Assembly (NCBI GenBank): GCA_964504715.1 | Contig: CAZDEP010000001.1 | Location: 16,830 to 80,829 of the forward strand | Direction: 5' to 3' | Length of the DNA: 64,000 nt | Origin: an uncultured Candidatus Saccharibacteria bacterium | GTDB taxonomy: Bacteria > Patescibacteriota > Doudnabacteria > UBA920 | Shown: positions 6,944 to 27,603 of the stretch, piece after piece | Position numbering within the stretch: position 1 is the stretch's first letter | Layout: the number at the start of each line of letters is the position of its first letter | Notes under the pieces: model-generated | The model's database searches: none | Told to the model about the DNA's origin: nothing | What the model saw: the letters and a program-made list of their open reading frames with translations, nothing else | Program-made: the position numbers and the translations under genes

Positions 6944-6948
6944 AAATC

Positions 6949-8173: not shown

Positions 8174-8197
8174 TACATATATAGAGTAAGCGCATAA

Positions 8198-8744: not shown

Positions 8745-9431
8745 ATGGAAATGGAAAAGAAAAACAAAACCGCGGTAAAAAGCACCCAAAGTTTTTTGCG
8801 CCTCAGTGAAATAAAAAACGACACCGTGGTGGTGGACGACGGCACTTTAAGGGCCATAATTGCGGTTTCGTCCACAAATTTTGACTTAAAAAGCCAGGAC
8901 GAACAGGAAGCAATAATTTTTAATTACCAAAGATTTTTAAATTCCCTGGAGTTCCCGGTCCAAATTTTAATGCAGAGCCGCAAAATGGAAGTGGGGGCCT
9001 ACGTGGAAAAGCTCAAAAAGCTTTCGGAAAAGCAGACTAACGAGCTGTTAAGGGTGCAGACGGTGGAATATACGGAATTCATAAGCCGGCTAATAGAAAA
9101 CGCCAGCATTATGAACAAGAATTTTTATGTCATAGTGCCTTTGGGAAAAAGCATAACACCAAGCCCGGCTGGGATTTTTAGCCGGATATTTTTGGGCGGA
9201 AAAAGCAAGGAGGCCGCCGAAAGGATACAAAATTTTGAAAAAAACAGCGAAGAGCTTTCAACGAGGGTTGTTGCCGCCATTGGCGGGCTTTCCCAGGTGG
9301 GCCTAAAGGCTGTCCGCTTAAGGACGGAGGAAATTATCCAGCTTTATTATAATTCCTATAATTTTGAAAGCGGCCCCGTTATTGACCCTAAAAGCTTGGC
9401 CGAGATAAAACTGGCTGAGCCACAAAAATGA
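8745..9431 (+). CDS. virB4: VirB4/TrbE-family ATPase, N-terminal fragment (aa 1 to about 228); the rest of the gene resumes at 9921 after an inserted element
   Basis: TVVVDDGTLRAIIAVSSTNFDLKSQDEQEAIIFNYQRFLNSLEFPVQILMQSRKMEV is the canonical VirB4/CagE N-terminal motif (lkdGslraiievsginfdL.seeEqe.ii..fq.fLnsLdfpiQi...sr). The ORF stops about 20 bp before the element's left TIR. Confidence 0.65.
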   Translation: MEMEKKNKTAVKSTQSFLRLSEIKNDTVVVDDGTLRAIIAVSSTNFDLKSQDEQEAIIFNYQRFLNSLEFPVQILMQSRKMEVGAYVEKLKKLSEKQTNELLRVQTVEYTEFISRLIENASIMNKNFYVIVPLGKSITPSPAGIFSRIFLGGKSKEAAERIQNFEKNSEELSTRVVAAIGGLSQVGLKAVRLRTEEIIQLYYNSYNFESGPVIDPKSLAEIKLAEPQK

Positions 9432-9450
9432 ATAGTGAAGTAAGAATTAT

Positions 9451-9910
9451 TCAGATCTGCAGATGGGCGGATTTTACAGATACCTACAGATTTTAAAAGA
9501 TAAAGCTTATGGAAAAAAATGAATTCCTGTACGGTGACGAGACTTATAAATTAAGGGGACTGCTTTTTTCTGTTCATAACGAACTTGGCAGGTTTGCCAA
9601 AGAAAAACAATATTGCGACAAAGCCGAGGAAAAGTTTATCATTAACCAGTGGCCACATGTTAGAGAACCCCAAATCGGAGATATTGGTGATAGACCGGAT
9701 TTTATAGTCTGGGACTTAATTGTTGTTGAGTTTAAAGCAAAACCGTATTCGCAACAATCAGATTTTGAGCAGGTGCAACGTTATTTGCAGCAGACTAAAT
9801 TGAAATTAGGCATACTGGTAAATTTTAGGGCAAAATATTTGAATCCCCAAAGAATTTTGAATATTAATCATCTGCAGGTATCTGTAAAATCTAAAGATCT
9901 GTAGATCGGA
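9451..9910 (+). mobile_element. Element of about 460 bp, bounded by ~33-bp terminal inverted repeats, carrying a GxxExxY-family ORF and inserted into the VirB4 gene
   Basis: Left end is acagatgggcggattttacagatacctacagat. Right end is atctgcaggtatctgtaaaatctaaagatctgtagatcgg, the reverse complement of the left end with a few mismatches. A cargo-less copy of the same ends abuts at 37296-37392. Confidence 0.6.
9509..9904 (+). CDS. GxxExxY-family protein (PD-(D/E)XK nuclease-like fold), cargo of the inserted element
   Basis: LLFSVHNELGRFAKEKQY resembles the family motif (..v..eLGpGflEsvYe..). The spacing here is GxxxxExxY, so the match is a variant. The ORF's C-terminal codons lie inside the right terminal inverted repeat. 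Confidence 0.5.
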   Translation: MEKNEFLYGDETYKLRGLLFSVHNELGRFAKEKQYCDKAEEKFIINQWPHVREPQIGDIGDRPDFIVWDLIVVEFKAKPYSQQSDFEQVQRYLQQTKLKLGILVNFRAKYLNPQRILNINHLQVSVKSKDL

Positions 9911-9920
9911 ATAAAATATC

Positions 9921-11765
9921 TTGAGTATTTTTAAAGCAAAAACCGAAGAAGAGTTGCAGGCCAAAAAAGCCCGGCTCGAGGAGATGGAGCAGGAAAGCAA
10001 TGCGGGCAGGCGGCTTAAGGAAGTGGAAAAAACTTACCGCGAAGGGCTGACGACTCTAAAAGATTTAATAGCGCCCGCGGCTTTGAATTTCCAGGGCTCC
10101 CATTTTGAGCTGAACGGAAAATTTGCCCGTACGTTTTTTGTGCTTGCGTACCCGCGTTTTTTGTCCAGCAATTGGCTGTCGTTTATTATAAACGCGGAAG
10201 GCGCGCTGGACGTTTCTATTTTTATTTACCCCATAAATTCGGAAACCATTTTAAAGAAGCTTAAATCCAAAGTCGGCGAAATTGGTTCGCAAATGGCCAT
10301 TAACCAGGAAAAAGGCATGGTCAGGGACCCTATGCTCGAAACCGCTTACAAAGACGTGGAGTCTTTGCGCGATTCGCTGGTGCAAGGCACGGAACGCTAT
10401 TTTAGGGTAGGAATTTATTTTACGGTTTACGCCGAAGATTTAAAGCAGCTGGAAGCATTTTCCACTTCGCTTGAGAGCTCTTTGGGTTCCAAATTAATTG
10501 TTACCAAGCGGGCAATAATGCAAACCCAAGCCGGCCTGAATTCCTCTTTGCCTTTGGGGTTGGACGAACTTGATGTCGGCAATAACATGAATACCGGGCC
10601 ACTTTCCACGACTTTTCCGTTTGTGTCTTCGGACGTAACTTCCAACGACGGCATATTGTACGGCATTAACCGCCATAACAACAGCTTAATTTTGTTTGAC
10701 CGGTTTGCCATGGAAAACGCCAACAGCGTGGTTTTTGCCAAGTCCGGCGCCGGCAAATCTTACGCCATTAAGCTGGAAATTTTAAGGAGCTTAATGGTGG
10801 GCACGGAGGTCATAGTTATTGACCCGGAAAACGAGTACAAACATTTGGCCGAAGCCGTGGGCGGCACCTATTTAAACGTTTCTTTAAACAGCAACTCCCG
10901 AATCAATCCTTTTGATATTCCCGTGGGCCTGGAGGGCGAGGACAATACCGACATTATGCGCACCGCCGTGGTAAACCTTTTGGGGTTGGCGAATTTGATG
11001 GTCGGGAAATTAAATCCGACCGAAGAAGCGCTTTTGGACAAGGCCATTTGGCAAACCTATGCCAAAAAAGACATAACCCCCGAGCTGGCGGATTTTAAGA
11101 GCATTGAACCTCCGACCATGAACGACCTTTTGGAAATTTTGGCCGGCACGGTGGGCGCGGAGAATTTGGCCCAGCGGTTTTCTAAATTCACGGAAGGCAC
11201 TTTTGCGGGACTGTTTAACCAGCCGACCAATGTGGTTTTAAACAACTTGCTGGTGGTTTTTTCCATTAGGGATTTGGAAGAAGAATTGAGGCCCATCGCC
11301 ATGTATATAATCCTAAATTATATATGGAATATTGTCAGAAGCGAATTAAAAAGAAGGATTATGGTAATTGACGAAGCCTGGATCCTTATGCAGCACGAGG
11401 ACAGCGCCCGTTTCCTGTTTGGCATAGCCAAAAGGGCCCGCAAATATTATTTGGGCCTGACAACCATTACGCAAGATGTGGTGGATTTCATGAACAGCCC
11501 TTACGGCAAGCCGATTGTTACTAACTCTTCCATCCAATTGCTTTTAAAACAGTCACCGGCTGCCATTAACGTAATTGCCGAAACTTTCTTTTTAACCGAA
11601 GGCGAAAAATACCTGCTTTTGGAAAGCGAAGTGGGCGAGGGGATTTTCTTTGCGGGCAACAAGCACGCGGCAATTAAAATTTATGCCTCCTACGTCGAAG
11701 ACCAAATTATAACCACGGACCCGAAGCAGTTATTAGAGATAAAAGAAAGCCAGGAAACAGTTTAA
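9921..11765 (+). CDS. virB4: VirB4/TrbE-family T4SS ATPase, remaining ~614 aa: middle domain plus C-terminal AAA+ ATPase
   Basis: LKDLIAPAALNFQGSHFELNGKFARTFFVLAYPRFLSSNWLSFIINAEGALDVSIFIYP matches the VirB4 middle-domain consensus. Walker A is FAKSGAGKSYAIK, Walker B is RIMVIDEAW. The track's first codon is TTG. Confidence 0.85.
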   Translation: MSIFKAKTEEELQAKKARLEEMEQESNAGRRLKEVEKTYREGLTTLKDLIAPAALNFQGSHFELNGKFARTFFVLAYPRFLSSNWLSFIINAEGALDVSIFIYPINSETILKKLKSKVGEIGSQMAINQEKGMVRDPMLETAYKDVESLRDSLVQGTERYFRVGIYFTVYAEDLKQLEAFSTSLESSLGSKLIVTKRAIMQTQAGLNSSLPLGLDELDVGNNMNTGPLSTTFPFVSSDVTSNDGILYGINRHNNSLILFDRFAMENANSVVFAKSGAGKSYAIKLEILRSLMVGTEVIVIDPENEYKHLAEAVGGTYLNVSLNSNSRINPFDIPVGLEGEDNTDIMRTAVVNLLGLANLMVGKLNPTEEALLDKAIWQTYAKKDITPELADFKSIEPPTMNDLLEILAGTVGAENLAQRFSKFTEGTFAGLFNQPTNVVLNNLLVVFSIRDLEEELRPIAMYIILNYIWNIVRSELKRRIMVIDEAWILMQHEDSARFLFGIAKRARKYYLGLTTITQDVVDFMNSPYGKPIVTNSSIQLLLKQSPAAINVIAETFFLTEGEKYLLLESEVGEGIFFAGNKHAAIKIYASYVEDQIITTDPKQLLEIKESQETV

Positions 11766-11770
11766 TTCTA

Positions 11771-11860
11771 TTGACATAATTGACAAAATTTAAATAATTG
11801 ACAAGATTGGGATTCGAAATTTTGCTCAATTTTGTTCAATTATGTCATTTTTGTCAATTT
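11771..11860. promoter_or_regulatory. Dyad-symmetric array of TTGACA-like repeats (about 3 forward, 4 reverse) upstream of the 970-aa gene
   Basis: ttgacataattgacaaaatttaaataattgacaag ... tttgctcaattttgttcaattatgtcatttttgtcaattttt. Similar arrays are at 8655-8740, 55519-55560 and 60705-60750. Confidence 0.45.
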
Positions 11861-11864
11861 TTTT

Positions 11865-14744
11865 ATGGCCGACGATAATAAACCAACAGGCTCAGCAGGC
11901 GTGGCGGAAGAAGCGCCGGCAAAAAAACCGGACGATGCGCCCAAACAGCGTCCGCTTTCAGGCAGGCCGCTAATTATTCAGTTTGGCATACCGATCCCGG
12001 GCGTGGGCGCGGTAATTAACGGTGTTTCCATAGACAATTTTCCCGCCCAGGGCACCCAGGCGGAAATAAACGGCGGGTCTTTTATCAGCCTCGTAGGGAT
12101 CGGCTTGGACAGGTTTGACGACGAATATTGGCGGCTGGAAAGGCAGGGGAAAAAACCTGTGGAGTTGAAAGTTGTGTCCGCAGGCACGGGCGGCGAAGGG
12201 AAAAATTCTTTGAGGGGGAGGTGGGTAACTTTGCAGGTGCCCCGCTCCGAAGTTTCGGGCCTTAATCCCAATGAAAGTTTAGGCCTTAGCTTTTTTAGCA
12301 GCCGGATTGGGGGCAAGTTGCGCACCTTGCCAATGGTTTTTGTTTTTAAATCTGACTCTAGCCAGACCCAGGCAGCGCAGACTGTTTCCAATGCGCCCCA
12401 AATCCCGGTACAGCCCGGTAACATGGGCCCGGGCAATTTATCGGCAAACGGCGGGGCCGGAGTTTTTTCTGGGGCTGAATTGGGCGGACAGGTAATAGGC
12501 GGGGCCGCAAAAGCCGCTGCCGGGGCTTTTTCCGCGGGCGCTGGAGACAAACCCGCATCCGGCCCAATAAAAGCATCAGGCACCTTAAAATCTATGAGCA
12601 CGACGGCCTCTGCTGCTCTGGGCGGCGTCCAGGCGGACTTAGATGGGGGCGGCGGGGAAGTTTCTGTTTCAGAAACCGTAAAAACCACGGGCGCCGCGTT
12701 GCCTCAAACAGTAAAGCAAAGCGTGGAGGTTATAGGCGAGCATTTGGACAAAACCCCCGAGCTTATTGTAAATGCCAACGTCAGGCAAAAAATTTCTTCG
12801 GCGTTAAAAAGCGGTAATCTGTCTTCCTTAAGCGCGGAAGAAAAACAAACTTTAAATACAACCCTAAAGACTGTTACCGAAGGCGGTGGGCAGGTTTCGG
12901 CACAAGTTCAGGCCGCAGCGGGCATTATTTTAAACAGTGAAATAACCGGGGAGGCGCAAGTTAAGGCGCAAGGGCGCGCATCAACCACGGACGAAGCCCC
13001 TGTTAAGCAAACCATGCCAGCCGAAGCTGAAGAATCTGTCCAAGCCCAAACAGCTCCCTCGGCCCAGCCCAAAACCCAATCAATGAGTTTGGGCCAAAGC
13101 CTGCAAGCTACAGGGGAATTTTTGCAAAAAAATAATATCATTCCTAACTTTAAAGGCAGTCGCGGGCGAATTTTACAAGCTTTGGCCAACGGAAAAATTA
13201 ACGAACTTTCCGAAGACGACAGGGAAGTTTTGGCCGGCGCTTTAAAGTCGGCCAAATCGCAAGCGCCGGCCTCACTGCAAGCGTCTTTAAATAAAACAGC
13301 CCAAGCGGTAGCTACAGGACCCAAGGCCGAGGCAAATATTTCCAAGCCGTCGGAAATTAAAGAGACCGCGCTTAAAGCGAGCGCGCCTTTGTCGGTTAAG
13401 CGGGAGTTTGACGCGAAAATCGCGCAAATGAATACTGCGGGGCGTAAAGTTGATGCCGCGGTTTTGGGCAAAAGGCCCGAAGGCGCCGATGAAATAAATT
13501 TAAGCCGGGGAAAAGACATTAAAGTTAGGGAAAAAGAAAAGGCTGAAGAATCCGTCAAAGAAGGCGCAGAAGGGGCGGAAATAGGAACGCAATCTCCGCA
13601 GGAAGGCGAATTATCCAGGCAGGAAGGTATGCCCGAGGAAAAAATTTCCCCGGTTCTTCCCATGCCGCCGGCCGCTCCGGAAAAAACCGAAGAAGAAAAA
13701 GACGAGCCTAATTCAAAATCAGGTATCAAACGCAAGCCCGAAGAAAAATCCGGCGAAAACAATCCGGAGGAGCTAAGCCAGGACGAACAAAACCGTTTGG
13801 CGGAATTGGAAGAACAGCAGGCGCGGCTGCAAAATCAGGAAAGGCTTAAAGCCGTAAAAGAACAACAAGAGCAAAGTCTCGCCCGGCAGGCCGCGGAAAA
13901 AGAGGCAAACGCCGCTCTAAACGCTGTTTTAATGAAAGGCATTATGGCAGTCTGGCTTGCCGCCGTCGAAACTTTGGGACTTTCAATTTTAGTGGGCGCT
14001 TTGGCGGGAGATGTAATTTGGATTTTTAAAGGGTGGATTTTAAAAAAATTTGAATCTGGCAGAAACATTTTAAACAAATTTCATGGCGGAAAAAATGCGG
14101 GGCACTTAAAAATAGAGTTAAGCGGGAAAGTAAAGTTGAATATTATTGCCATGAACCTGGCAGTAGTGGCGGTAATTATTTTTTTGGCGGGCATACTCTT
14201 TGCGGCTATTAGGTTTGGTTGCAAAACTTATTTGCTGAGGGGCGATTATTGCGCAGTAATTAACAATATGGATTTTGAGTCGTTTAAGTCTTATATTACT
14301 GTGCCAACTGTCCCGGCGGCGCCCGTTGGGGGCGTATGCAGCCCGGTTCCGGCCGGCGTGGCCAGCCCTTCGGCTTTGGCTGGCACTTGCTTTGGGCAAA
14401 ACGCTTCCGCGGCTTCCATGATAGCCGCGGCGGAAAGCGGGGGAGACCCGGGCAAGGCAAGCCGCGTGGATATTTGTACGGTGGACAACAGCGTGGTTTC
14501 CTGGGGCCTGTTCCAAATAAATTTAAGCGCGCATAAAATCGGCAGCCTGGATTGCCCCAAAGCTTTTAGCAAAATGTATACCGGCAGCAGCAAAGACTGC
14601 CGCGTGGTGGACCAGGCGCTGTACCAACTGTGTGTTAAGGCCGCTACCGCTCCCGACTCTCAAATCCAAACCGCCTGCGCAATTTCCGGCAACGGCAGCA
14701 ACTGGAACGCTTGGCTGAATACTAAAAATAAATGCGGACTTTAA
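11865..14744 (+). CDS. Giant T4SS-associated protein. It has a ~190-aa N-terminal domain, a ~500-aa Ala/Gln/Lys/Glu-rich disordered linker, two hydrophobic helices, and a C-terminal lytic transglycosylase (SLT/VirB1-like) domain.
   Basis: C-terminal ...AAAESGGDPGKASRVDICTVDNSVVSWGLFQINL carries the SLT catalytic Glu-Ser and the GLxQ(I/V) motif at the expected spacing. Hydrophobic helices are at about aa 690-715 and 750-775. The ATG at 11865 is preferred over the upstream TTG. Confidence 0.6.
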   Translation: MADDNKPTGSAGVAEEAPAKKPDDAPKQRPLSGRPLIIQFGIPIPGVGAVINGVSIDNFPAQGTQAEINGGSFISLVGIGLDRFDDEYWRLERQGKKPVELKVVSAGTGGEGKNSLRGRWVTLQVPRSEVSGLNPNESLGLSFFSSRIGGKLRTLPMVFVFKSDSSQTQAAQTVSNAPQIPVQPGNMGPGNLSANGGAGVFSGAELGGQVIGGAAKAAAGAFSAGAGDKPASGPIKASGTLKSMSTTASAALGGVQADLDGGGGEVSVSETVKTTGAALPQTVKQSVEVIGEHLDKTPELIVNANVRQKISSALKSGNLSSLSAEEKQTLNTTLKTVTEGGGQVSAQVQAAAGIILNSEITGEAQVKAQGRASTTDEAPVKQTMPAEAEESVQAQTAPSAQPKTQSMSLGQSLQATGEFLQKNNIIPNFKGSRGRILQALANGKINELSEDDREVLAGALKSAKSQAPASLQASLNKTAQAVATGPKAEANISKPSEIKETALKASAPLSVKREFDAKIAQMNTAGRKVDAAVLGKRPEGADEINLSRGKDIKVREKEKAEESVKEGAEGAEIGTQSPQEGELSRQEGMPEEKISPVLPMPPAAPEKTEEEKDEPNSKSGIKRKPEEKSGENNPEELSQDEQNRLAELEEQQARLQNQERLKAVKEQQEQSLARQAAEKEANAALNAVLMKGIMAVWLAAVETLGLSILVGALAGDVIWIFKGWILKKFESGRNILNKFHGGKNAGHLKIELSGKVKLNIIAMNLAVVAVIIFLAGILFAAIRFGCKTYLLRGDYCAVINNMDFESFKSYITVPTVPAAPVGGVCSPVPAGVASPSALAGTCFGQNASAASMIAAAESGGDPGKASRVDICTVDNSVVSWGLFQINLSAHKIGSLDCPKAFSKMYTGSSKDCRVVDQALYQLCVKAATAPDSQIQTACAISGNGSNWNAWLNTKNKCGL

Positions 14745-16744: not shown

Positions 16745-18073
16745 ATGGTTAAAACTAATACAATTTTTGTTTGCTCGAATTGCAATTACCAAAGCCCCAA
16801 GTGGCAGGGCAAGTGCCCCAACTGCGGCGAATGGAATACTTTTGAGGAAAGGACGCAAGTTAGCAGGGGGAAATCTCAGGGGCAGGTGCAGGCCGCCAAG
16901 TCTGTGGGACTTTCGTCGCTTGGAGGCGGACAACGGCCCAGGGTCCAAAGCGGGATTTCGGAGTTTGACGAAGTAATCGGCGGAGGCCTTGTGGCGGGTT
17001 CGCTCGTGCTTTTGGGCGGCGATCCGGGCATTGGCAAATCTACCCTGGCTTTACAAATTTCCTTAAACCTCCAGGACCGGGTGCTTTATGTTTCCGGTGA
17101 AGAGTCGGCCAACCAAATAAAAATGAGAGCCGACCGGATTACAAAAAACCAAAATTTGCAGGTTTTGTCCGAGACCAACCTCGACGCCGTATTGAGTTCT
17201 GTGGAAGCGCAAACGCCTGAAATTGTAATTGTCGATTCCATCCAAACTATGTATTCCGAAGACGCCAGCGGCGTGGCCGGGGGCGTGGCGCAAGTAACGA
17301 GCGCAGTGCAGAAAATAATGCGCCTGGCCAAAAGCAGCCATATAACTTTTATCCTCATCGGCCATGTTACCAAGGAAGGGTATTTGGCAGGGCCCAAAAC
17401 TTTGGAGCATATGGTTGATACCGTGCTGTATTTGGAGGGCGAAAGGTTTGCAAACTTACGCATTTTGCGCGGCGTAAAAAACCGCTTTGGCACGACCAAT
17501 GAAGTGGGCGTTTTTGAAATGTCGGGAGGCGGATTGGCGGAAGTTAAAAATCCTTCCCAGCTGTTTTTGGGTGAAGATTCCATAAAAGCATCGGGCAACA
17601 CCATTACCAGCGTTATGGAAGGCAGCCGCGCCCTGCTTATAGAAATCCAGGCCCTGACTTCCCCCAGCAATTTTGGCTATCCCAAGCGTACAACCAGCGG
17701 CTACGACAACAACCGTTTGCAGCTTATTACCGCCATACTATCCAAGCGCGCGGGCTTGAACCTCTCCAACCAGGATATTTTTGTAAATGTGGTGGGCGGC
17801 ATAAAGATTGAAGAACCCGCGGCCGATTTGGCAGTGGCTCTGGCAATAGTTTCCAGTATGAAAGATATAATTATCCAGGAGGCGGTAGTAATCGGCGAGC
17901 TGGGGCTTTCCGGGGAATTAAGGTTTGTGCCCAATTTGGAAAAAAGGATAAAAGAAGCGGAGAAGCTGGGTTTTAAAAAAGCCATCTGTCCTAAAGGCAA
18001 AATCGCCTTAAAGTCTTCCAAACTTGAAATAGTCCAAGTTAGAACCCTCTCTGAAGCCATTAGCAAACTTTAG
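16745..18073 (+). CDS. radA: DNA repair protein RadA/Sms
   Basis: N-terminal C4 zinc finger CSNCNYQSPKWQGKCPNCGEW, Walker A GGDPGIGKST, the KNRFG motif, and a Lon-protease-like C-terminal domain. Confidence 0.9.
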   Translation: MVKTNTIFVCSNCNYQSPKWQGKCPNCGEWNTFEERTQVSRGKSQGQVQAAKSVGLSSLGGGQRPRVQSGISEFDEVIGGGLVAGSLVLLGGDPGIGKSTLALQISLNLQDRVLYVSGEESANQIKMRADRITKNQNLQVLSETNLDAVLSSVEAQTPEIVIVDSIQTMYSEDASGVAGGVAQVTSAVQKIMRLAKSSHITFILIGHVTKEGYLAGPKTLEHMVDTVLYLEGERFANLRILRGVKNRFGTTNEVGVFEMSGGGLAEVKNPSQLFLGEDSIKASGNTITSVMEGSRALLIEIQALTSPSNFGYPKRTTSGYDNNRLQLITAILSKRAGLNLSNQDIFVNVVGGIKIEEPAADLAVALAIVSSMKDIIIQEAVVIGELGLSGELRFVPNLEKRIKEAEKLGFKKAICPKGKIALKSSKLEIVQVRTLSEAISKL

Positions 18074-18102
18074 AAATTTTTTAATATTTTATAACTTTTC
18101 TC

Positions 18103-18138
18103 CCCATAGGCTAATTCGGGCGAATTAGCCTATGGGGT
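18103..18138. repeat. About 30-bp perfect palindrome, copy 1 (ccccataggctaattcgggcgaattagcctatgggg)
   Basis: A near-identical copy in inverted orientation (centre ggc versus ccc) is at 22584-22620. Together they bracket a 4.4-kb cassette between the convergent radA and recG genes. Confidence 0.6.
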
Positions 18139-18237
18139 AAGTTAAAATTGTGTTCAAATAATTCCCCTTATTTGACAGGGTTTTAGAGTTTGTTATTATA
18201 TATAAAATAGAGGTTTAAAAATAAGGAAACAAAATAT

Positions 18238-18516
18238 ATGAAAAAATGGTTGATATTTATTTTTTTGGTAATTCTGCCGTTTGTTTTGGGGATATTTTAT
18301 GATAAAAAATTTGAGTATGCGGGCAATTGGCTGGAGGATTATCAAAATTATTTTAAAGTAGGATTCTTGTTGGTATCTATAACTTCTTCCGCATGGTTAG
18401 CCCTAATTGCAAAGAAGGAAAAAAATATTTTTTTGCTTGTTGTGTCAGTAATAATATTTATAATATTATCTTATATATTATATTTAGGCATAAACTTAAT
18501 TAGTATTTCCTTCTAA
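18238..18516 (+). CDS. Small hydrophobic membrane protein (hypothetical)
   Basis: 92 aa with 3 predicted TM helices; very AT-rich codon usage. Confidence 0.3.
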   Translation: MKKWLIFIFLVILPFVLGIFYDKKFEYAGNWLEDYQNYFKVGFLLVSITSSAWLALIAKKEKNIFLLVVSVIIFIILSYILYLGINLISISF

Positions 18517-18536: not shown

Positions 18537-21440
18537 ATGAAAAAACTTCTCTTCCTTCTCCTTCTCTTTGCCCTTGTCTTCCCCCTGCCTATGTCAGCGG
18601 ACGAAAACTTGTGCCCCCAGTTCAGCCAGCACAGCGCCGGAGAGGGGTTTGTAGACTACGAAAGCCATGAGTACATCAATGGCTTTTTAAGTATCCACTT
18701 TAAATTAGCTCCCAATTCAAACCATAAACTGGGTACAGCCTACAAGCTTTTAAGGAGTTCTGACTGCCAGGAAGCCGCCCCCGGAGGCTGGTGGTCCATG
18801 GGCACCTTTGATATTCCCCAGGAGGTAAATAACTTCTCCATCCGCTTTTACCAGCGGATTAATTTCGGGGAGTATAAATACAGAGTCTATAACGACGATA
18901 CGAACCAGGTAATCAACTGTGATGCCTGTGATACCGGCTTCTGGAACATGGTCTACTTTGGCGGTGAACCGCCCCATAAATTCTGGCTGACCCTGTATAC
19001 CCCTTATGATTTTGGCTACATTCCCAACCTTTCCGTCCTCCCACCCACCAGGTTTATTGCCTCTGCCCCGGACATTGAGCAGCCTGAATACACAGGGAAA
19101 ACCCCGGTACTCATAGTGCCGGGCGTATTAGGTAGTAATTTAATAAAAGGCGATAGTAATTTATGGGTCAATCCCGTTAAAATGGTTAACGATTTTAGTG
19201 ATCAGTTCATGGACCCCTTGCAATTTACAGAAAATCTTGTCCCATTAGATTCTTCAATATTATTAGATAATGTTATTAGAAAAGAAAGTTATCTATTTTT
19301 TGATTTTGATTATACTTTTGGTCTAATAAATATTTTTTCTAATCAAGGTTACACCGAAAATAAAGACCTTTTTACCTTTCCCTATGATTGGCGCTACGGA
19401 GTTACGGGTGTATACGGGGACGGTACAAATAATGTGGGAAAATTAAAACAGAAAATTGAAGCAATAAAATTGCAAACCGGTTCTCCAAAAGTTGATATTA
19501 TAGCCCATAGCAACGGCGGGCTTTTGGTAAAGAAGTATGTTATGGAAAATCCCTCCAACCACAGCATTAACAAAGCAATTTTTGTGGGTGTGCCAAATTT
19601 GGGCGCCCCAAAAGCTGTCAAAGTATTATTACAAGGCGATAATTTTGGCGTCAAAGGACTTTCTGATGAAGAAATGAAAAAGATAGCAAAGAATATGCCC
19701 GGAGTTTACGATTTAGCCCCTGGAAAAAATTACTTTGATGCCAAGGGGAGTTATGTCAAAATCATCGAACAGAAGTTTATGGCCACAGACCCCGTTCGGG
19801 ACTTGGATTTTTCAGCCGTAAGGCAGTTTTTAGGCGGTGACCACGGTTTGAATTACGCGGCCTACGACAATGGGCAAGCCCTGCATAACAATGCTTTCGA
19901 AAACTTTGACCTGCGCACTGCGGGTGTGGATATGTACAATATAGTCGGTTGCAAAAGCGGGACCATAGGCGGGATTACAGAAGTCCGCAGTAAAGACTTT
20001 TTTGGTAACCCCTTGTTTAATTACAGACGGCCCAGCATTGTGTCTGGAGATGAAACAGTACCCTACGAAAGTGCCAACAGCATAAAAGTAGATGATGGGA
20101 AAGTATACTACGCTAAAAAATATACTCACTCCGAAATGCTAAGTGCCAATGGCACCCGAGAATTAATTGTAAACCTAATCTTAGGGCAAAATCTTTTAAA
20201 GATGGGGTCAAATATTATTCCGAGGCAGGGAGTACTCGCCGACCCCAGCCATTGTGAGTTGAATGGCAAGAAAATAGATATTTTAAGCCCGGTGGATATT
20301 GAGGTTTTTGACCAAAGCGGGAACCGTTTGGGCAAAGCGGCGGACGGGAGCCTGGAAAGCAATATTCCGGGTGCAGACATAAATGTCTTTGGGGACAAAA
20401 AATTTGTCTATTTGCCCACTGACAGCGGCGAGGTGTATGATATTAAACTAAAAGGCGAGGGTGAGGGCAGATTTACTTTAAATGTGCAGGATATTTCAGG
20501 CAGCCAGGAGGGGAGCACTGAAGTTTTTCCCAACCTGCCGGTTTCCCCAAGGCTTTTAGGCAATTTGTCTTTAGGTGCTAATTCCAGCGTTTTGAAGCTG
20601 GACAATAATGGCGACGGTGTGGTGGACAATACTTTAAATCCGGCGGCCGTTTTAAACCCCAACCAATCCCAAGACCTCCTTCCGCCCGTTTCAACCTCCA
20701 CCCTTGTTGGCACTATGGGCCAGCCGGGGTTTTACCGTAGCAATGTCCAAATAACCTTAAGCGCTAAGGATGTGGTGGTGCCGGGGTATGAATTAGAGAC
20801 TTCGGGCCTTCTTAGCTTAAAGTTTAGGCTGGATAATGCTTCAAGTACGCCCTATTCTACCTATTCAAGTCCTATTCTGGTGGAGGGGGAAGGCAAACAT
20901 ACCTTAGAATTCTTTTCCACGGACAAAGCCGGTAATAACGAAGAGGTTCAGACTGTAAATTTTGTAATAGATAAAACCGCTCCGGAATTTACAATTCAGT
21001 TCAATACGGTCTCCAAAGATTTTGATTATGCTGCAACGGATAACCAGGATATCCCCGTATCTATTGTTTGTAATACCACCCAATGCAGCAGTAGCGACAT
21101 GGCGGGCAATGCCAGCATATTTAAATATGAAAAGAAATCACTGGCAAATTCCAAAAATTTGCTTTTGAAAAGTATAAATTACAACAGGAAAATAACGAAT
21201 TTTGACCCTAACCTTTTTAACGTTATTTATAGCCTCAATAAGGGGGAAATGGCTGAAATTAGTCAAACCATACTTATAAAAAACCAGCAGGTTGCTAACA
21301 TTATGTATAACAGAAAATTAAACCAGTCAATTTATACTGACTGGTCAAAAGGCACAAAACCTGTTATTACTAAACTTGAAGGTCTTAAATATTTACAATT
21401 ACAAACAAATAACTCAAAAATTAAGGTTAATCAAAAATAA
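18537..21440 (+). CDS. Large secreted protein with an N-terminal class-2 lipase-like alpha/beta-hydrolase domain (AHSNGG nucleophile elbow) and a long C-terminal beta-rich adhesin-like extension
   Basis: Signal peptide MKKLLFLLLLFALVFPLPMSA. VLIVPGVLGSN plus IIAHSNGGLLVKKY resembles the Bacillus LipA/LCAT-type AHSxGG lipase motif. The C-terminus has calcium-binding-like DNNGDGVVDN and Big-like segments. Confidence 0.55.
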   Translation: MKKLLFLLLLFALVFPLPMSADENLCPQFSQHSAGEGFVDYESHEYINGFLSIHFKLAPNSNHKLGTAYKLLRSSDCQEAAPGGWWSMGTFDIPQEVNNFSIRFYQRINFGEYKYRVYNDDTNQVINCDACDTGFWNMVYFGGEPPHKFWLTLYTPYDFGYIPNLSVLPPTRFIASAPDIEQPEYTGKTPVLIVPGVLGSNLIKGDSNLWVNPVKMVNDFSDQFMDPLQFTENLVPLDSSILLDNVIRKESYLFFDFDYTFGLINIFSNQGYTENKDLFTFPYDWRYGVTGVYGDGTNNVGKLKQKIEAIKLQTGSPKVDIIAHSNGGLLVKKYVMENPSNHSINKAIFVGVPNLGAPKAVKVLLQGDNFGVKGLSDEEMKKIAKNMPGVYDLAPGKNYFDAKGSYVKIIEQKFMATDPVRDLDFSAVRQFLGGDHGLNYAAYDNGQALHNNAFENFDLRTAGVDMYNIVGCKSGTIGGITEVRSKDFFGNPLFNYRRPSIVSGDETVPYESANSIKVDDGKVYYAKKYTHSEMLSANGTRELIVNLILGQNLLKMGSNIIPRQGVLADPSHCELNGKKIDILSPVDIEVFDQSGNRLGKAADGSLESNIPGADINVFGDKKFVYLPTDSGEVYDIKLKGEGEGRFTLNVQDISGSQEGSTEVFPNLPVSPRLLGNLSLGANSSVLKLDNNGDGVVDNTLNPAAVLNPNQSQDLLPPVSTSTLVGTMGQPGFYRSNVQITLSAKDVVVPGYELETSGLLSLKFRLDNASSTPYSTYSSPILVEGEGKHTLEFFSTDKAGNNEEVQTVNFVIDKTAPEFTIQFNTVSKDFDYAATDNQDIPVSIVCNTTQCSSSDMAGNASIFKYEKKSLANSKNLLLKSINYNRKITNFDPNLFNVIYSLNKGEMAEISQTILIKNQQVANIMYNRKLNQSIYTDWSKGTKPVITKLEGLKYLQLQTNNSKIKVNQK

Positions 21441-21441
21441 T

Positions 21442-21780
21442 ATGACAAAAGGGCAAAAGATAGGGTTTTGGGCGGTGTTGGGATTGTTTATTCTTCCAGA
21501 AGTATTATGGAGTCCGGTGGGGAATTTTATTTATGCATTTATAAAAGACAGGCCTTTTAGAAACAATGCTCTTATGCATTCTGATTTCAGGGGCTTTGCA
21601 TTATTTATTGTATCATTGCAATTTATAGGAATATTTTCAGTTTTGGTAGTCTTATTAAAAGATAAAACATATCAATCATTTAAAGCAGGGCGAGTCCTAG
21701 TTTTTATAATTAGTATTGTTACCCTTGCCACTTTGGTGGTTTTATATACTCTTTTCGCTACAAAAAATATTAATATCTAA
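21442..21780 (+). CDS. Small 3-4 TM membrane protein, paralog A (candidate immunity-like protein)
   Basis: MTKGQKIGFWAVLGLFILPEVLWSPVGNFIYAFIK is about 70% identical at the N-terminus to the ORF at 22157. The ATG at 21442 is preferred because the track start at 21376 overlaps the upstream gene. Confidence 0.45.
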   Translation: MTKGQKIGFWAVLGLFILPEVLWSPVGNFIYAFIKDRPFRNNALMHSDFRGFALFIVSLQFIGIFSVLVVLLKDKTYQSFKAGRVLVFIISIVTLATLVVLYTLFATKNINI

Positions 21781-21848
21781 AAGAAGAAATATTATTTTTT
21801 GTCCCAAGTATTTAGTAAACCGCTCAAAAAAATTAATAAAATAAATTA

Positions 21849-22145
21849 GTGACTAGCAATAAAAGATTTAATTCACTCATCTTTACCACCATCGTTTTAC
21901 CCTACTTGCTTTCTTTCTTAAATTGGAAATATTCTTCATACGACAATTTTAGATGGGGTTATGATCATATAAATCAGCTAAGTATTATGGGGATAGCAAT
22001 TGCCGTTTTGGGTTCCGGGTTAGTGTTGTATTTGAATAACAAGGAAGGCAAAAACAAAAGTTGGAATATTATAGGGGGTTTATTGCTGGTATTCAATCTA
22101 GTTTATTTGTACATCGCGTACAATTTTTCTCATTTTGGCTTTTAG
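21849..22145 (+). CDS. Small membrane protein (hypothetical, GTG start)
   Basis: 98 aa with 3 hydrophobic helices, between the two paralogs. Confidence 0.3.
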   Translation: MTSNKRFNSLIFTTIVLPYLLSFLNWKYSSYDNFRWGYDHINQLSIMGIAIAVLGSGLVLYLNNKEGKNKSWNIIGGLLLVFNLVYLYIAYNFSHFGF

Positions 22146-22156
22146 CTTAAAAATTT

Positions 22157-22525
22157 TTGCATAAAATGACAAAGAAACAAAGGATCGGATTTTGGAGTAT
22201 TTTAGGGTTATTTATTTTGCCGGAAGTTTTATGGAGTCCGGTGGGGAATTTTATTTACTCTTTATTAAAACCCCCAGTCAATGGATCAGTACAGGTTTTA
22301 AGGAATAACTTCCTCCTTACTAATAAATATGACAATTTTTTTAGCGCCGTGTTGTTTATCCAGCTTTTGGGTTTGTTTGCTTCCGCAGTTTACCTAATTG
22401 TCATGCATAACTCAGTGCGAAATAAATGGCTGCTTTGGCCTTCCATGATTATCCTTTTGTTTTCATCGGTAGTGGTTTTTTACCTTTTTGGTTTCTCTAT
22501 CACCCTAAGGAACATTGGCTTTTAG
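22157..22525 (+). CDS. Small membrane protein, paralog B of 21442-21780
   Basis: KKQRIGFWSILGLFILPEVLWSPVGNFIYSLLK aligns with paralog A. Confidence 0.45.
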   Translation: MHKMTKKQRIGFWSILGLFILPEVLWSPVGNFIYSLLKPPVNGSVQVLRNNFLLTNKYDNFFSAVLFIQLLGLFASAVYLIVMHNSVRNKWLLWPSMIILLFSSVVVFYLFGFSITLRNIGF

Positions 22526-22583: not shown

Positions 22584-22620
22584 GCCTATAGGCTTATTCG
22601 CCCGAATTAGCCTATGGTAG
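22584..22620. repeat. About 30-bp palindrome, copy 2 (cctataggcttattcgcccgaattagcctatgg), inverted relative to copy 1
   Basis: See 18103-18138. It lies just downstream of the recG stop on the minus strand. Confidence 0.6.
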
Positions 22621-22651
22621 GAAAAGCTAGAATCAAGAATCCAAAATCAAA

Positions 22652-24721
22652 TCATTCCAGGTGGATGGTTTGGTTTTGGATTTCTTTTTTTAGTTCAGGG
22701 TAATTATTTAGGCCGGGGTCTTTTTCGAGTAAGGTTTTTGCTTCAGAGCGGGCGGCGGGGATTAGACTAAAGTAGGAGGGGTCAAAATATTTAAAGTTCC
22801 ATCCCGATTGGCTGGATCCAAAAAGTTCGCCAAAGCCGCGGAGTTTTAAGTCGAGTTCGGCAAGCTCAAAGCCGTCCTGGGTTTTTTCAAAGGCTTTAAG
22901 GCGTTTGGTGATATCACTATCGTCCGCGGTTTGGTCCAAGCGGGGCGGGGAAATAAAAAGCAGGCAATAGGACTGGTGGCTGGCCCTGCCTACGCGTCCG
23001 CGGAATTGGTGGAGCTGGGCCAGGCCAAAACGCTCCGCGCCTTCTATTATCATAACGCTGGCATTGGGTACGTCCACGCCCACTTCCACTACGGAAGTGG
23101 AAACCAGAATTTGGATGCGGTTATTTAAAAAAGCGTCCATAACCTGTTCTTTTTCTTCGGCCTTAAGGCGCCCGTGAAGGAGCCCTATTTGGAAGGCGGG
23201 GAAGGCCTTTTTTAAAAGTTCGACTTCGGTTTTGGCCGCCTTAATCCCCAGCCGGTCGTTTTCCTCAATTAGCGGGGTAATTACAAATGCCTGCCTTCCC
23301 GCTTGGATTTGGGTGCGTATGAACGAATAAGCATCCGGTCTTTTGTCGGGGGGCGTGAGTTTGGTAATAATTGGCTTCCTGTCAGCCGGCTTGGTTTTTA
23401 TTTGGGAGATATCCAATTCGCCATAAACCGCCAGCTGCAGGGTGCGGGGGATGGGTGTGGCCGAAAGCGAAAGCAGGTGCGGCACCGTGGGTTTATTAAG
23501 CAGCATGGCAGAGCGCTGCTTTACGCCAAAGCGGTGCTGTTCGTCTATTATGACCAAGGCCAGGCTGCCAAATTCCACTTTATTTTGCAAAAGGGCGTGG
23601 GTGCCAATGAAAATGCCGGGCGCGCCGGTTTTAATTAATTTATGCAGGTCGGCTTTTTTAAGTTCCTCATTGGCAACTTGCGCATAGCTGTGGGTGAGCA
23701 GGGCGAGTTTAAAATTTGCAAGGTGGGGCTTTAAGAATTTTTTTGCGGTTTCAAAATGTTGTCGCGCTAAAATTTCCGTAGGCGCTAGGAAAGCGACCTG
23801 CTTTTTGGCACGGGCAGTTTGCAGGGCGGCAATTAAAGCCACCAAAGTTTTGCCCGAGCCGACATCACCTTCCAAAAGGCGGTTCATGGGGGCAGGCTTT
23901 TCCAAGTCCTGCAAAATATCCCAGGCGGACTTTTTTTGTTCGGGCGTAAGCGCAAAAGGCAGGCTGTCGACAAAATTTTTAACCAGCTCACGGTCAAATT
24001 TTACCGCGTGAGCCTTTTTTTTGCTTAATTCCTGCTTGTATTTTTGTACTGCCAGCTGGACCATAAAAATTTCCTCAAAAGACATGCGGGTCCTGGCGCT
24101 TTGTGCATCGGTTAAATTTTTTGGAAAGTGGGCCAGCTCCACGGTTTTTTCCAGCGCAGGCAGGGTATATGGCTTTAAAATTTCGGGAGGCAGCCTGTCT
24201 TTGAGTTCGTGCTTAAAGGGCAGGGCCTTGCTTATGAGGTTGCGCAGAGTTTTCGGGTATAAGCCGGAGGTTAAATGGTAAACAGGCAGCAAGCGCGAGG
24301 TATGCACTGGAAATTCGCCGGCTTTTTCGTAAAGCGGGTTTACAAATTGCAGACGCCCGTTATAAGTTTCCACCACGCCCGCAATAAAAATCTCATCGCC
24401 CACTTTTAAGCTTTTGGCCAGGTAGGCTTGGTTAAACCAAATGACTTTTATGTTGCCCGTATCGTCGGCTATGAGCGCTTCGGCCAGGCTTAGGCGCCCC
24501 CGAAAGGAAAAGCGGCTGCCAATGCTTTTTATTTTCCCGCCCACGCTTACATTTTCCCCGGCTTTTAGCTCTTTAATTTTTTTTACTTCGGAAAAGTCCA
24601 AATAGCGGTAAGGGAAATACAACAACAAATCCCGAACCGTATGAATTTCGAGTTTTTTTAAAGCCGCTAAAAGCGGCTTATTTAGACGGCCAAGTATTTC
24701 AATGGGGGAGTTTACATCCAT
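22652..24721 (-). CDS. recG: ATP-dependent DNA helicase RecG
   Basis: OB-fold wedge region, helicase motifs GDVGSGKT (I), DEQHRFG (II), and QxxGRVGR motif VI (HQFRGRVGR). Confidence 0.9.
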   Translation of the reverse strand: MDVNSPIEILGRLNKPLLAALKKLEIHTVRDLLLYFPYRYLDFSEVKKIKELKAGENVSVGGKIKSIGSRFSFRGRLSLAEALIADDTGNIKVIWFNQAYLAKSLKVGDEIFIAGVVETYNGRLQFVNPLYEKAGEFPVHTSRLLPVYHLTSGLYPKTLRNLISKALPFKHELKDRLPPEILKPYTLPALEKTVELAHFPKNLTDAQSARTRMSFEEIFMVQLAVQKYKQELSKKKAHAVKFDRELVKNFVDSLPFALTPEQKKSAWDILQDLEKPAPMNRLLEGDVGSGKTLVALIAALQTARAKKQVAFLAPTEILARQHFETAKKFLKPHLANFKLALLTHSYAQVANEELKKADLHKLIKTGAPGIFIGTHALLQNKVEFGSLALVIIDEQHRFGVKQRSAMLLNKPTVPHLLSLSATPIPRTLQLAVYGELDISQIKTKPADRKPIITKLTPPDKRPDAYSFIRTQIQAGRQAFVITPLIEENDRLGIKAAKTEVELLKKAFPAFQIGLLHGRLKAEEKEQVMDAFLNNRIQILVSTSVVEVGVDVPNASVMIIEGAERFGLAQLHQFRGRVGRASHQSYCLLFISPPRLDQTADDSDITKRLKAFEKTQDGFELAELDLKLRGFGELFGSSQSGWNFKYFDPSYFSLIPAARSEAKTLLEKDPGLNNYPELKKEIQNQTIHLE

Positions 24722-25849: not shown

Positions 25850-27013
25850 TCATTCAACGTACTGGGGGAGAGGGTCTTCTATAATAAACCCGCCTACCGC
25901 ATTGTTCGGATTGATTTTGGACTCTTCCTGCAATTCGTCGCGGATTTTAGGCGCAGGTTTTAGCAGGCTTTCCGGGCTGGTGGTGGTGTCCGGCTGTTTT
26001 TGGGATTCCGGCGAGCTGGTGGCCGCAGGGGCGGGGTCTTCAGTTCGGCCCAGGGCAGAAAGTTTTAAGGCAATAATTTTTGTACCGGATTTTTTGCCTG
26101 TGACCGCGACTTTTTCCCCGATTTTAAGTTCGGAGAAATTTAAATTTTTGCCGTCCGCGGAAATAAGGGTAGTGGAGGCATTTACGGCAAAGGAGGTTTT
26201 TTCCACCTGCAGGCCGTCTTTTTCAATTTTAGTGATTTGTCCGGAGAGGGTTACGCTGTCTTCCGACCCCAAAAGGTTTGTAAGGGCCGCTTCTGCCGTG
26301 GTAATTTCCACGGATTGCTTAATTTCGGAAATCCGGGTTTGATTTTTTAAACTAAGGGCAATTACATCTTTGGTGTCGTCGTTTTGGGCAATGTCAGAAA
26401 TCAGAGCCTGTTCTTTTTTGCCCACTTCTTCCAGGGAGTTTAAAAGTTCAGGGTTAGCCGAGGTTATGGATTCGCGCGAGAGGGTATTTACTTCTTCTGC
26501 CGCCTGCTGTGTAGCTTTCGAAACTTCCTTAATTGCAGCGAGCTTTTGGCCGGTATTGTCGCCCGGCAGGCTGGCCAGTTTTTGCGCTTCTGCTACTCTT
26601 TTTTTTGCAATTTGCACCTGCAAATAAGCCCTCTGGATTTTGTCGCCGGCGAATTTTACCCTAAATTGCTCCGCGCTTTTTTTAATTTCAAAAAGTTTTT
26701 GCCCGGGCAAACTGTTGGCCGTGGCGTAGGTAAACCCTCCAACCAAAAGCAAGCCTGCACAAATTGCCACAGCAGGAATAAAATTAAAGACTTTCAAAAA
26801 TTCCAAGTTCCAGCCAAAACCCACCGAGGGCTTTTGGGCTAGGTATTTGCGGCGGCTGGCGGCAAGGGCGGGGGTAGCTGCCCGAATAGAGCTTAAGCTT
26901 TTTAAAATTTGCGCCCACTCTTTTTCCTCTGAAGACATGCTCAAAATCCCGAGCTCATTTAAGGAGCCTTTTTTTACAGCGGTGATTAATTGTTCGAGTT
27001 GTCTGTCGTCCAT
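25850..27013 (-). CDS. Single-pass membrane protein, putative anti-sigma factor partner of the adjacent ECF sigma (cytoplasmic N-terminus, one TM, extracytoplasmic low-complexity domain)
   Basis: Translationally coupled to the sigma gene (start overlaps its stop at 27013). TM helix FIPAVAICAGLLLVGGFTYA. Confidence 0.45.
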   Translation of the reverse strand: MDDRQLEQLITAVKKGSLNELGILSMSSEEKEWAQILKSLSSIRAATPALAASRRKYLAQKPSVGFGWNLEFLKVFNFIPAVAICAGLLLVGGFTYATANSLPGQKLFEIKKSAEQFRVKFAGDKIQRAYLQVQIAKKRVAEAQKLASLPGDNTGQKLAAIKEVSKATQQAAEEVNTLSRESITSANPELLNSLEEVGKKEQALISDIAQNDDTKDVIALSLKNQTRISEIKQSVEITTAEAALTNLLGSEDSVTLSGQITKIEKDGLQVEKTSFAVNASTTLISADGKNLNFSELKIGEKVAVTGKKSGTKIIALKLSALGRTEDPAPAATSSPESQKQPDTTTSPESLLKPAPKIRDELQEESKINPNNAVGGFIIEDPLPQYVE

Positions 27014-27603
27014 TAGGGTTTTTCCTGGAGTTTTTTAAGCTCCAAAAGCTTGGTTATGGCGCGGTGCTGTATGACTCGTATGGCGCCTTCGGTCTTATTT
27101 AATATTACGGCGATTTCGGCGTTGCTTAAATCTTCCAAAAATTTTAATTTAATTACCGCCTGTTGTTCCGCGCCCAGTTCTTTTAAAAGTTTAAGCAATG
27201 CCGCCTGCTCGTATTCGAGCTGCAAAAGGTCCACGGTGTTAGTCTCGTATTCCAGGGTATTTTCCACATCTTCCAAACTTACCGTAAGCTTTTTTTCCCG
27301 GTAATAATCTATAACCGTGTTGCGGGCAATGCGGTAAATCCAGCCAAGGAAAACTTCTGGTTTGTCCAGGGTGCCTAACTTGCCGAAAGCTTTTATAAAG
27401 ACTTCCTCGGCCAAATCTTCCGCTACTTCCTTGTGGCCTACGCGGTAAAAAATGAACCTGTAGATTTTTTGGAAGAGCAGGTCATACACCTGGCCAAAAG
27501 CCGCCTCGCTCCCACCTTGGGCTTTTTTCACCAATTGGGCGAGTTCCTGGGCATTTTCATCAAATTCCATTGTACTAATATTTAAGACGTCAGAGTTGGG
27601 CAT
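27013..27603 (-). CDS. ECF-type RNA polymerase sigma-70 family factor
   Basis: Region 2 reads QGGSEAAFGQVYDLLFQKIYRFIFYRV...AEDLAEEVFIKAF. Region 4 HTH reads LSNAEIAVILNKTEGAIRVIQHRAITKL. Confidence 0.8.
   Translation of the reverse strand: MPNSDVLNISTMEFDENAQELAQLVKKAQGGSEAAFGQVYDLLFQKIYRFIFYRVGHKEVAEDLAEEVFIKAFGKLGTLDKPEVFLGWIYRIARNTVIDYYREKKLTVSLEDVENTLEYETNTVDLLQLEYEQAALLKLLKELGAEQQAVIKLKFLEDLSNAEIAVILNKTEGAIRVIQHRAITKLLELKKLQEKP

Follow-up and report, generated by a model that had tools for sequence, protein, structure and literature searches.

Several described bacterial systems place a lipase gene beside the gene of a smaller companion protein. In Tle/Tli pairs the gene of a membrane-targeting lipase lies next to one or more small cognate genes, sometimes in tandem, and in the LipA-Lif pairs of Pseudomonas and Burkholderia, as in LipA-LipB of Acinetobacter, a secreted alpha/beta-hydrolase lipase is encoded beside a membrane-bound helper on which its function depends. 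Small polytopic bacteriocin and colicin immunity proteins, of about 90-120 amino acids (aa) with three or four transmembrane segments, reside in the producer's membrane, and their genes lie beside that of a secreted membrane-damaging protein. Here we describe a locus that shares features with such systems, located in a 64,000-nucleotide stretch (contig CAZDEP010000001.1 of assembly GCA_964504715.1, positions 16,830 to 80,829) from a bacterium recorded as Candidatus Saccharibacteria and placed by GTDB among the Doudnabacteria. This whole stretch is called the window below, and positions are those of the window unless a related locus is named. The locus encodes a secreted enzyme, predicted from sequence and structure models to be of the LCAT/lysosomal phospholipase A2 (LPLA2) type, together with four members of an undescribed family of small membrane proteins, and comparison with related loci shows that it is a conserved two-component module of Patescibacteria.

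The enzyme is encoded by the open reading frame (ORF) at 18537..21440 on the forward strand. An earlier note on this DNA had read this ORF as a secreted 967-aa lipase-like protein with an AHSNGG nucleophile elbow in an LCAT-like hydrolase domain, and our analysis agrees on each of these points. Residues 1-23 form a Sec signal, consisting of MKK, a hydrophobic core and MSA/DE (the segment reads MKKLLFLLLLFALVFPLPMSA/DE), and this segment is the sole hydrophobic stretch both in the 967-aa protein and in its N-terminally complete homologs, as seen in a survey of 120 listed homologs of which a minority were fragments or fell under the hydrophobicity threshold. The top Pfam match was LCAT (PF02450), at E 1.1e-21 and 78 bits where the cutoff is 21; Lipase_2 came next. 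An exact look-up of the 967-aa protein gave no record. A family profile built from 35 homologs matched human LCAT (E 1.9e-10) and LPLA2 (E 5.5e-10), and it aligned PVLIVPG, LW.D and PYDWR (identical in LCAT) as well as the elbow, AHSxGG against GHSLG, to both enzymes. The AlphaFold (AF2) model of the protein had a mean predicted local distance difference test score (pLDDT) of 83.9, and most of the hydrolase core exceeded 90. Its best matches in a Foldseek search of the PDB were the LPLA2 structures 4x92, 4x97 and 4x90 (E 7e-14 to 1.5e-13, target-normalised template modelling score (TM-score) 0.72-0.73 over about 408 columns), and LCAT was matched through 5txf and 4x96; taken together, the LPLA2 and LCAT matches spanned E values of 7e-14 to 1e-10 and TM-scores of 0.70-0.73, with alignments of about 405-416 columns against chains of 375-378 residues; for the five structures named here the E values ran from 7e-14 to 4e-11. 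Ordinary bacterial lipases scored far below these, the weaker matches including lipases of the LipA-Lif and LipA-LipB pairs (2es4, 9g8u and 1ex9). PF02450, the Foldseek alignment to 4x92 and the invariant residues delimit the catalytic alpha/beta-hydrolase region to aa 187-560 (19095..20216).

The elbow lies at aa 323-328 (nucleotides 19503-19520, as confirmed by translation). Ser325 (19509-19511), Asp505 in the motif GDxTVP (20049-20051) and His531 (20127-20129) were invariant in 35 of 35 aligned homologs, as were Cys472 and Cys573. Ser325 aligns to the serine of LCAT GHSLG, and in the model it sits between strand 319-324 and helix 326-337, while Asp505 closes strand 492-505 and His531 follows strand 523-527. 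Thus a complete set of Ser, Asp and His residues is present, the lack of which the earlier note had named as evidence against its assignment; the three are predicted to form the catalytic triad at canonical positions, the equivalence of Asp and His being judged from their invariance and position. Profile and model alike indicate that the core is an LCAT/lysosomal-phospholipase-A2-type alpha/beta hydrolase, with a predicted phospholipase A or acyltransferase activity.

On either side of this core the protein carries further domains. An N-terminal beta-sandwich of approximately aa 30-180, modelled with lower confidence, is common to only a subset of homologs; most homologs cover about 80% of the query and have other N-terminal domains such as SpaA_4. 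The hydrolase is followed by some 400 aa of adhesin-like beta-sandwich domains, and the C-terminal half is beta-rich in the model. This beta-sandwich/immunoglobulin (Ig)-like array, aa 575-967 (20259..21437), is marked out by NCBIfam NF047446, the match to SiiE, the model and conservation; it includes an OmpL47-type/BIg-like domain at aa 740-811 (NF047446, E 1.3e-14) and resembles, by structure and profile, the BIg domains of the calcium-binding adhesin SiiE. The beta-rich C-terminus and the DNNGDGVVDN motif pointed out earlier are both present, but this D-x-N-G-D-G loop (aa 689-698) is only semi-conserved, being kept in 18-24 of 35 homologs depending on the position. The extreme C-terminus (aa 820-967 of the window protein, set beside homologs P0001-P0120) is conserved in two forms: most sequences end in ...GLxLLKVxTNKGDLxWSY and those of the window's clade in ...TNxGKIKxxIK, and we saw no clean correlation between this C-terminal flavour and the subtype of the small proteins described below.

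Four small ORFs accompany the enzyme gene on the same strand. A 92-aa protein is encoded upstream (18238..18516), and proteins of 112 aa (21442..21780), 98 aa (21849..22145, with a GTG start) and 119 aa (22166..22525) are encoded downstream. The three small membrane ORFs previously reported downstream of the lipase therefore exist, but the likely lengths of their products are 112, 98 and 119 aa rather than 134, 98 and 122 aa, and the fourth ORF, upstream, had been missed. A family hidden Markov model (HMM), seeded with clear members and then iterated on the ORFs of related loci, placed all four proteins in one family: the upstream protein, a divergent member, at E 3e-14, and the downstream proteins at E 1e-18 (start at 21376 or 21442), 1e-25 and 2e-18 (start at 22157 or 22166), in gene order. 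The first and third downstream proteins, singled out earlier as two clear paralogs, are indeed about 80% identical over their first 35 residues and about 40% overall, with 77% nucleotide identity over 110 nucleotides, but the middle ORF belongs to the same family too.

Within the family we distinguished a long subtype of about 110-120 aa, which starts with MTKxQKIWLW..F.vPEiLWSP, and short subtypes of about 90-100 aa, which end in S.FGF. The 112-aa protein, with its PE.LWSP motif, and the 119-aa protein are of the long type, and the 98-aa protein, ending in ...SHFGF, is of the short type. One proline in the first helix is the sole residue invariant across the family. Modelled with AF2 (pLDDT 88.8), the 119-aa copy has helices at residues 3-23/25-34, with a kink at PE.LWSP, 53-79 and 87-116, so this copy is predicted to be a three-pass membrane protein; model and sequence give the small proteins three long helices, loops of at most 25 aa and almost no soluble part. 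According to the positive-inside rule, the basic N-terminus would be cytoplasmic, and the first loop and the C-terminus would lie outside. None of the small proteins had a Pfam, NCBIfam or PADLOC match, their PHROG matches were not meaningful, and a PDB fold search with the 119-aa model returned only generic helical bundles (best E 2.6). An exhaustive profile search of 1.84 billion representatives recovered 355 family members, 174 of them at E <=1e-10, with lengths of 66-162 aa among the best 150 of the 355. No source names any of these members, and the small three-pass proteins are an undescribed family.

We then asked how firmly the small genes are linked to the enzyme gene. In the three relatives examined first, a family member of 114-119 aa lay 6-17 bp upstream of the LCAT-like gene, and the downstream neighbours differed. 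A survey of 91 loci with an LCAT-like gene extended this observation: in about 38 of the approximately 45 loci in which the enzyme scored above 500 bits, a family member directly adjoins the enzyme gene on the same strand, with gaps of 1-45 bp. In the closest clade the partner gene precedes the enzyme gene and in another it follows, and the window and one related locus (L043) have partner genes on both sides; the loci carry one to four copies. The distant LCAT-like loci gave no match to the HMM, yet most of them have a small ORF with three or four transmembrane segments immediately downstream. Counting any adjacent small multi-transmembrane ORF (at most 150 bp away, same strand, 60-170 aa, at least three transmembrane segments), we found one at 51 of 85 LCAT-like genes (60%) versus 6 of 241 controls (2%), the controls being the remaining genes of these loci that encode at least 300 aa. 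The association between the enzyme and a small gene is far beyond chance. It was also seen in the reverse look-up, where an LCAT gene lay 4-45 bp downstream of the small genes P0161, P0131, P0125 and P0141, that is, in four of the four interpretable cases on long contigs. A fifth small gene, P0167, is at a contig edge, and the candidate orphan P0151 was rejected as such, as it sits in a rearranged LCAT locus (L098), which leaves no true orphan on record here. Hence the small genes are not core genes unlinked to the lipase in relatives, in line with what the earlier note had supposed, and these observations support the small membrane genes as true functional partners of the lipase.

The subtypes and rearrangements of the partner genes provide clues to their role. 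The window's two long copies are nearest to partners found with the closest relatives of its LCAT-like enzyme (ranks 1-7), its middle copy is nearest to the partners of enzymes only 32-35% identical (ranks 24-39) from distant LCAT clades, and the nearest relative of the upstream protein is the sole upstream partner of an LCAT gene in another locus (L024); the window unites partner subtypes that accompany different enzyme clades elsewhere. In L043 a 718-bp direct repeat, 98.5% identical, occupies 6116-6833 and 10542-11257 on either side of a full LCAT gene, and each copy holds the last ~125 codons of an LCAT-like gene and an identical 99-aa small partner gene. In L098 (1-4345) a truncated enzyme gene, an unrelated 127-aa multi-transmembrane ORF and an IS200/IS605 (Y1_Tnp) transposase are followed by two tandem cassettes of an LCAT C-terminal fragment plus a small partner gene, with 79% DNA identity. 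By analogy, the cassettes of both loci are reminiscent of the orphan cassettes of polymorphic-toxin loci. The partner is kept where only the catalytic region of the enzyme aligns, and also in L017, where the C-terminus of the enzyme is different. In L006 (7476-9383, from a Candidatus Giovannonibacteria metagenome-assembled genome (MAG)) an LCAT-like C-terminus runs without a stop into two transmembrane helices resembling the last two helices of the partner family; the match is of 20.6 bits and compositionally biased, the gene is frameshifted at about 7392/7476, and the locus may hold a natural fusion of enzyme and partner or may have decayed. Finally, in a distance-matrix (mirror-tree) test on 18 loci, the partner correlated with the catalytic domain at rho 0.36 and with the C-terminal domain at 0.33, the partial correlations being 0.25 and 0.20, respectively (permutation p about 0.02 each), so that the correlations are weak and similar.

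As judged from the ORF list of the window, the five same-strand ORFs fill the interval between radA (16745..18073, forward strand) on the left and the convergent recG (22652..24721, reverse strand) on the right. The 92-aa gene ends 21 bp before the lipase gene, and the start of the 112-aa gene is 1 nucleotide past the lipase stop codon. A promoter-like site, TTGACA-16-TATTAT with TG upstream (18172..18199, forward strand), which is a consensus match only, with 11 of 12 positions matching, precedes the first small gene, and the five genes appear to form a single transcription unit. The module is enclosed exactly by an imperfect inverted repeat, the 48-nucleotide left arm of which (18089..18136) harbours a hairpin with a perfect 17-bp stem at 18102-18137, and the right arm of which (22585..22632) has a copy of this hairpin with the loop inverted. 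The arms are 85% complementary, and the element occurs only twice in the window versus 0 expected by chance; the flanking 36-nucleotide palindrome was not found in 96 related loci. The repeat could be a local terminator, a repetitive extragenic palindromic (REP)-like element or the edge of an inserted cassette. The GC content of the module is 0.38-0.39 compared with about 0.45-0.48 across most of the window, and a type IV secretion system (T4SS)-like region is similarly low.

This T4SS-like cluster, of the type found in the candidate phyla radiation (CPR), extends over 2036..14744, about 3.8 kb upstream of the module. It encodes a 1090-aa TrbL/VirB6-like protein (2036..5308), a PrgI-family protein (8198..8650), a VirB4/TraG-type ATPase (9921..11765) and a 970-aa protein with a C-terminal lysozyme-like domain (11832..14744), together with several ORFs without any family match. 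Between the cluster and radA lies a gene (15390-16598) whose 402-aa product has a signal or anchor segment and repeats of the PD40 type (TolB-like beta-propeller); the organism lacks an outer membrane. The remainder of the window is housekeeping, with ClpB, SecA, GatA/B, MiaA, MreB/C, PBP2 and FolD. On the reverse strand, at 25850-27603, the gene of an extracytoplasmic function (ECF)-type sigma factor (27013..27603) is followed by that of a DUF5667 protein (25850..27013), and the two are likely a sigma/anti-sigma pair; three tRNA genes (24727-24801, 25542-25631 and 27751-27842) lie by this locus.

Outside the window, at least 827 enzyme homologs were found at E <=0.001. The best 120 of them show 40-55% identity, and apart from a few shorter fragments most measure about 800-1,400 aa. 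Those among the 120 that bear a name are from Patescibacteria, namely Nomura-, Staskawicz- and Doudnabacteria, and loci from GTDB extend the list to Giovannoni-, Zambryski- and Yanofskybacteria as well as a single record under the label Saccharibacteria. The neighbours of the pair in related loci are mostly housekeeping genes (hisS, ybeY, ftsA/ftsZ, lepA, dksA), and the synteny seen here with radA and recG is not conserved. Genes of type IV pili (pilB, pilC, pilM) occur near the pair in five independent loci (L010, L012, L017, L045 and L057); in L010 (763-8298) the pair sits between pilB and pilC, and in L017 pilB follows the enzyme gene by 110 bp. For pilB/pilC, 5 were observed versus 0.5-0.9 expected in 632 kb of flanking DNA, with a Poisson P of about 2e-4 to 0.04 that depends on the assumptions made; this modest enrichment hints at a link with pili but is no rule. 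A defence-system or phage origin was considered and rejected, PADLOC returning nothing and PHROGs two marginal matches of unknown function.

What such a module may do is best seen against what is known of the lipids of CPR bacteria. These bacteria have incomplete lipid synthesis and fatty-acid-based, lysolipid-enriched membranes, and they probably obtain lipids from neighbours (PMC7242380). Phospholipase A has been mentioned as a possible source (PMC7242380), and a mechanism of lipid uptake or breakdown has not been identified in CPR bacteria (PMC7242380, PMC11665869). It has been proposed that Vampirococcus obtains host phospholipids by means of a secreted phospholipase (PMC8080830), and in a Paceibacteria MAG a horizontally acquired lysophospholipase was noted (PMC12455944). 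Within the library searched, we found no paper linking LCAT-family proteins to CPR bacteria and no previous account of this family in them.

The gene structure, the secretion signal, the fold, the invariant residues, the partner family and the linkage are what is observed of the module. From these we infer a substrate, a target membrane and an action of the partners, and we tentatively favour a host-directed LCAT/PLA2-type enzyme with self-protecting membrane partners, while granting that other readings taken together have the larger claim. The large protein would leave via the Sec pathway and remain outside the cell, where it would cleave or transfer acyl chains of the glycerophospholipids of a foreign membrane, that of the host bearing the epibiont. 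The host membrane would be weakened, and lysolipids and fatty acids would be freed for the lipid-auxotrophic cell. Since an interfacial phospholipase is secreted, the only membrane of the presumably monoderm-like producer would be exposed to it; the small three-pass proteins would lie in this exposed cytoplasmic membrane and act on the enzyme at the outer-leaflet interface, sparing the producer's own bilayer in an immunity-like manner. Such an immunity role is plausible by analogy, and the arrays of one to four divergent paralogs per locus, the mixing of subtypes, the cassettes and the retention of the partner where the catalytic region alone is conserved favour it. Several observations weigh against it. 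The immunity proteins known for lipases bind as soluble proteins or lipoproteins, and a three-pass partner with such short loops has little surface with which to cover an active site. The module is widespread and is mostly found among housekeeping genes, unlike typical accessory toxin/immunity islands, and therefore a core role such as host-lipid harvesting fits at least as well as interbacterial warfare. The apparent enzyme-transmembrane fusion of L006 fits anchoring better than immunity, and co-variation gave no indication of the enzyme domain that the partner follows. In addition, Pfam and NCBIfam scans detected no LXG, PAAR, Rhs or CdiA-type delivery domain on the enzyme, which has a Sec-type signal only.

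A serious though somewhat less likely alternative keeps the same enzyme and casts the partners as membrane docks or cofactors for lipid harvesting, perhaps receiving or flipping lysolipids or acyl chains. The enzyme has no anchor of its own, and in L006 it continues in a topologically sensible way into two partner-like helices, but that match is weak and biased and its gene is frameshifted. The units of C-terminal fragment plus small gene that move together in L043 and L098 could be a docking domain with its cognate anchor, although the partner is also retained in L017, where the enzyme has another C-terminal tail, and in distant loci in which the alignment covers just the catalytic region. 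Transacylation comes naturally to LCAT and LPLA2, which depend on a partner to present the lipid, and this would suit docks of this kind, as would the housekeeping neighbourhoods and the lipid auxotrophy of CPR bacteria (PMC7242380, PMC11665869). On the other hand, four paralogs of three subtypes at one enzyme are hard to explain by a simple anchor, and the partner, with one universal proline, shows no transporter-like signature and no fold match. Taken a step further, the module would be a CPR lipid-acquisition device in which a transacylase takes host acyl chains or lysolipids and the three-pass family docks, presents or flips them; we regard this as unlikely, although, if true, it would explain why these bacteria are lipid auxotrophs and also why their membranes are rich in lysolipids.

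The enzyme might instead act on the producer's own lipids, as a housekeeping envelope enzyme that makes lysolipids or acylates a surface acceptor with the partners as substrate-presenting subunits. Transacylase chemistry is typical of the LCAT family, and the wide conservation, the housekeeping neighbourhoods and the lysolipid-rich CPR membranes (PMC7242380) fit as well. However, the variable N-terminal domain and the long adhesin-like array suggest binding outside the cell, the genomic position is variable and the GC content low, a core biosynthetic enzyme would not usually come with rearranged cassettes and arrays of paralogs, and type IV pilus genes are modestly enriched nearby, all of which makes this explanation improbable. 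Less probable still, and in our view very unlikely, is an interbacterial or anti-host toxin delivered by the nearby T4SS-like apparatus and countered by Tli-like immunity genes, an association with the T4SS that the earlier note had put forward. The paralogs and the L043/L098 cassettes do resemble immunity arrays, the window has its T4SS-like cluster at close range, in L008 the pair lies within a homologous cluster, and L011, alone among the loci, has T4SS-pilin genes, six of them, directly beside the pair. Yet when the related loci were probed with the T4SS proteins of the window, TrbL or VirB4 homologs were near the pair only in L008 and L009 among 87 non-redundant loci, so that T4SS adjacency amounts to about 3 of 87 loci overall. 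The export signal is a classical Sec signal without a recognisable delivery domain, no Tle-family, PADLOC or meaningful PHROG match was found, and the partners are polytopic, unlike Tli. The proposed T4SS association of the pair was not upheld.

Returning to the favoured host-directed enzyme with self-protecting partners, its interest extends beyond one locus. Patescibacteria account for a sizeable part of bacterial diversity; unable to make fatty acids or phospholipids themselves, they nevertheless have normal membranes rich in lysolipids (PMC7242380). A secreted LCAT/PLA2-type enzyme with a dedicated partner in several CPR lineages is a candidate for lipid acquisition or for the breach of host membranes. 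The small family is new, with its several hundred representatives (355 at 50% identity), and it may offer a case of self-protection against the cell's own lipase where the sole membrane is exposed.

Set beside the described systems, the module proved to differ from each of them. Its likeness to Tle/Tli, which the earlier note had taken for the same architecture, does not go beyond the gene arrangement. Tle1-Tle5 were not matched, Pfam and NCBIfam giving LCAT, Lipase_2 and generic hydrolase families only, and the scanned ORFs and annotated related loci contained no type VI secretion system (T6SS) domain (VgrG, Hcp, PAAR). Tli proteins are lipoproteins or soluble proteins of the periplasm, whereas the partners here are polytopic, with three transmembrane segments and no soluble domain; the enzyme has a Sec signal in place of VgrG/PAAR-dependent delivery; and the module is widely conserved in the phylum, Tle/Tli being patchy. 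With the contact-dependent inhibition (CDI)/Rhs polymorphic toxins it shares displaced 3'-end fragments, each with a small gene (L043, L098), and several divergent paralogs, but the displaced fragment here is a beta-sandwich C-terminal domain and not a catalytic one, the cassettes occur in 2 of about 90 loci, and no delivery machinery or toxin-family domains were found at the module. Lif, at about 340 aa, has one transmembrane segment and a large periplasmic chaperone domain, in contrast to the partners, which are three-helix bundles of about 90-120 aa; Pfam detected no Lif domain in any of the four small proteins, nor was there a fold match. That the small proteins act as a Lif-type foldase or as holins was rejected on the absence of a Lif domain, the enzyme's own signal peptide and the hydrophobic ...GF end without a charged tail. 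The bacteriocin and colicin immunity proteins, similar in size and topology, neutralise pore-forming toxins, not lipases, and Pfam and PDB scans detected no sequence or fold similarity between them and the partners. The closest relation is to LCAT and LPLA2 (PF02450), extracellular interfacial enzymes with which the window's enzyme shares the fold over nearly their whole length, the sequence motifs, the xHSxG elbow and the order and spacing of Ser, Asp and His. From these it departs in being bacterial (Patescibacteria), in having only about 18-21% sequence identity to them, and in its extra variable N-terminal beta-domain, its ~400 aa of C-terminal Ig-like domains and its family of small three-pass partners.

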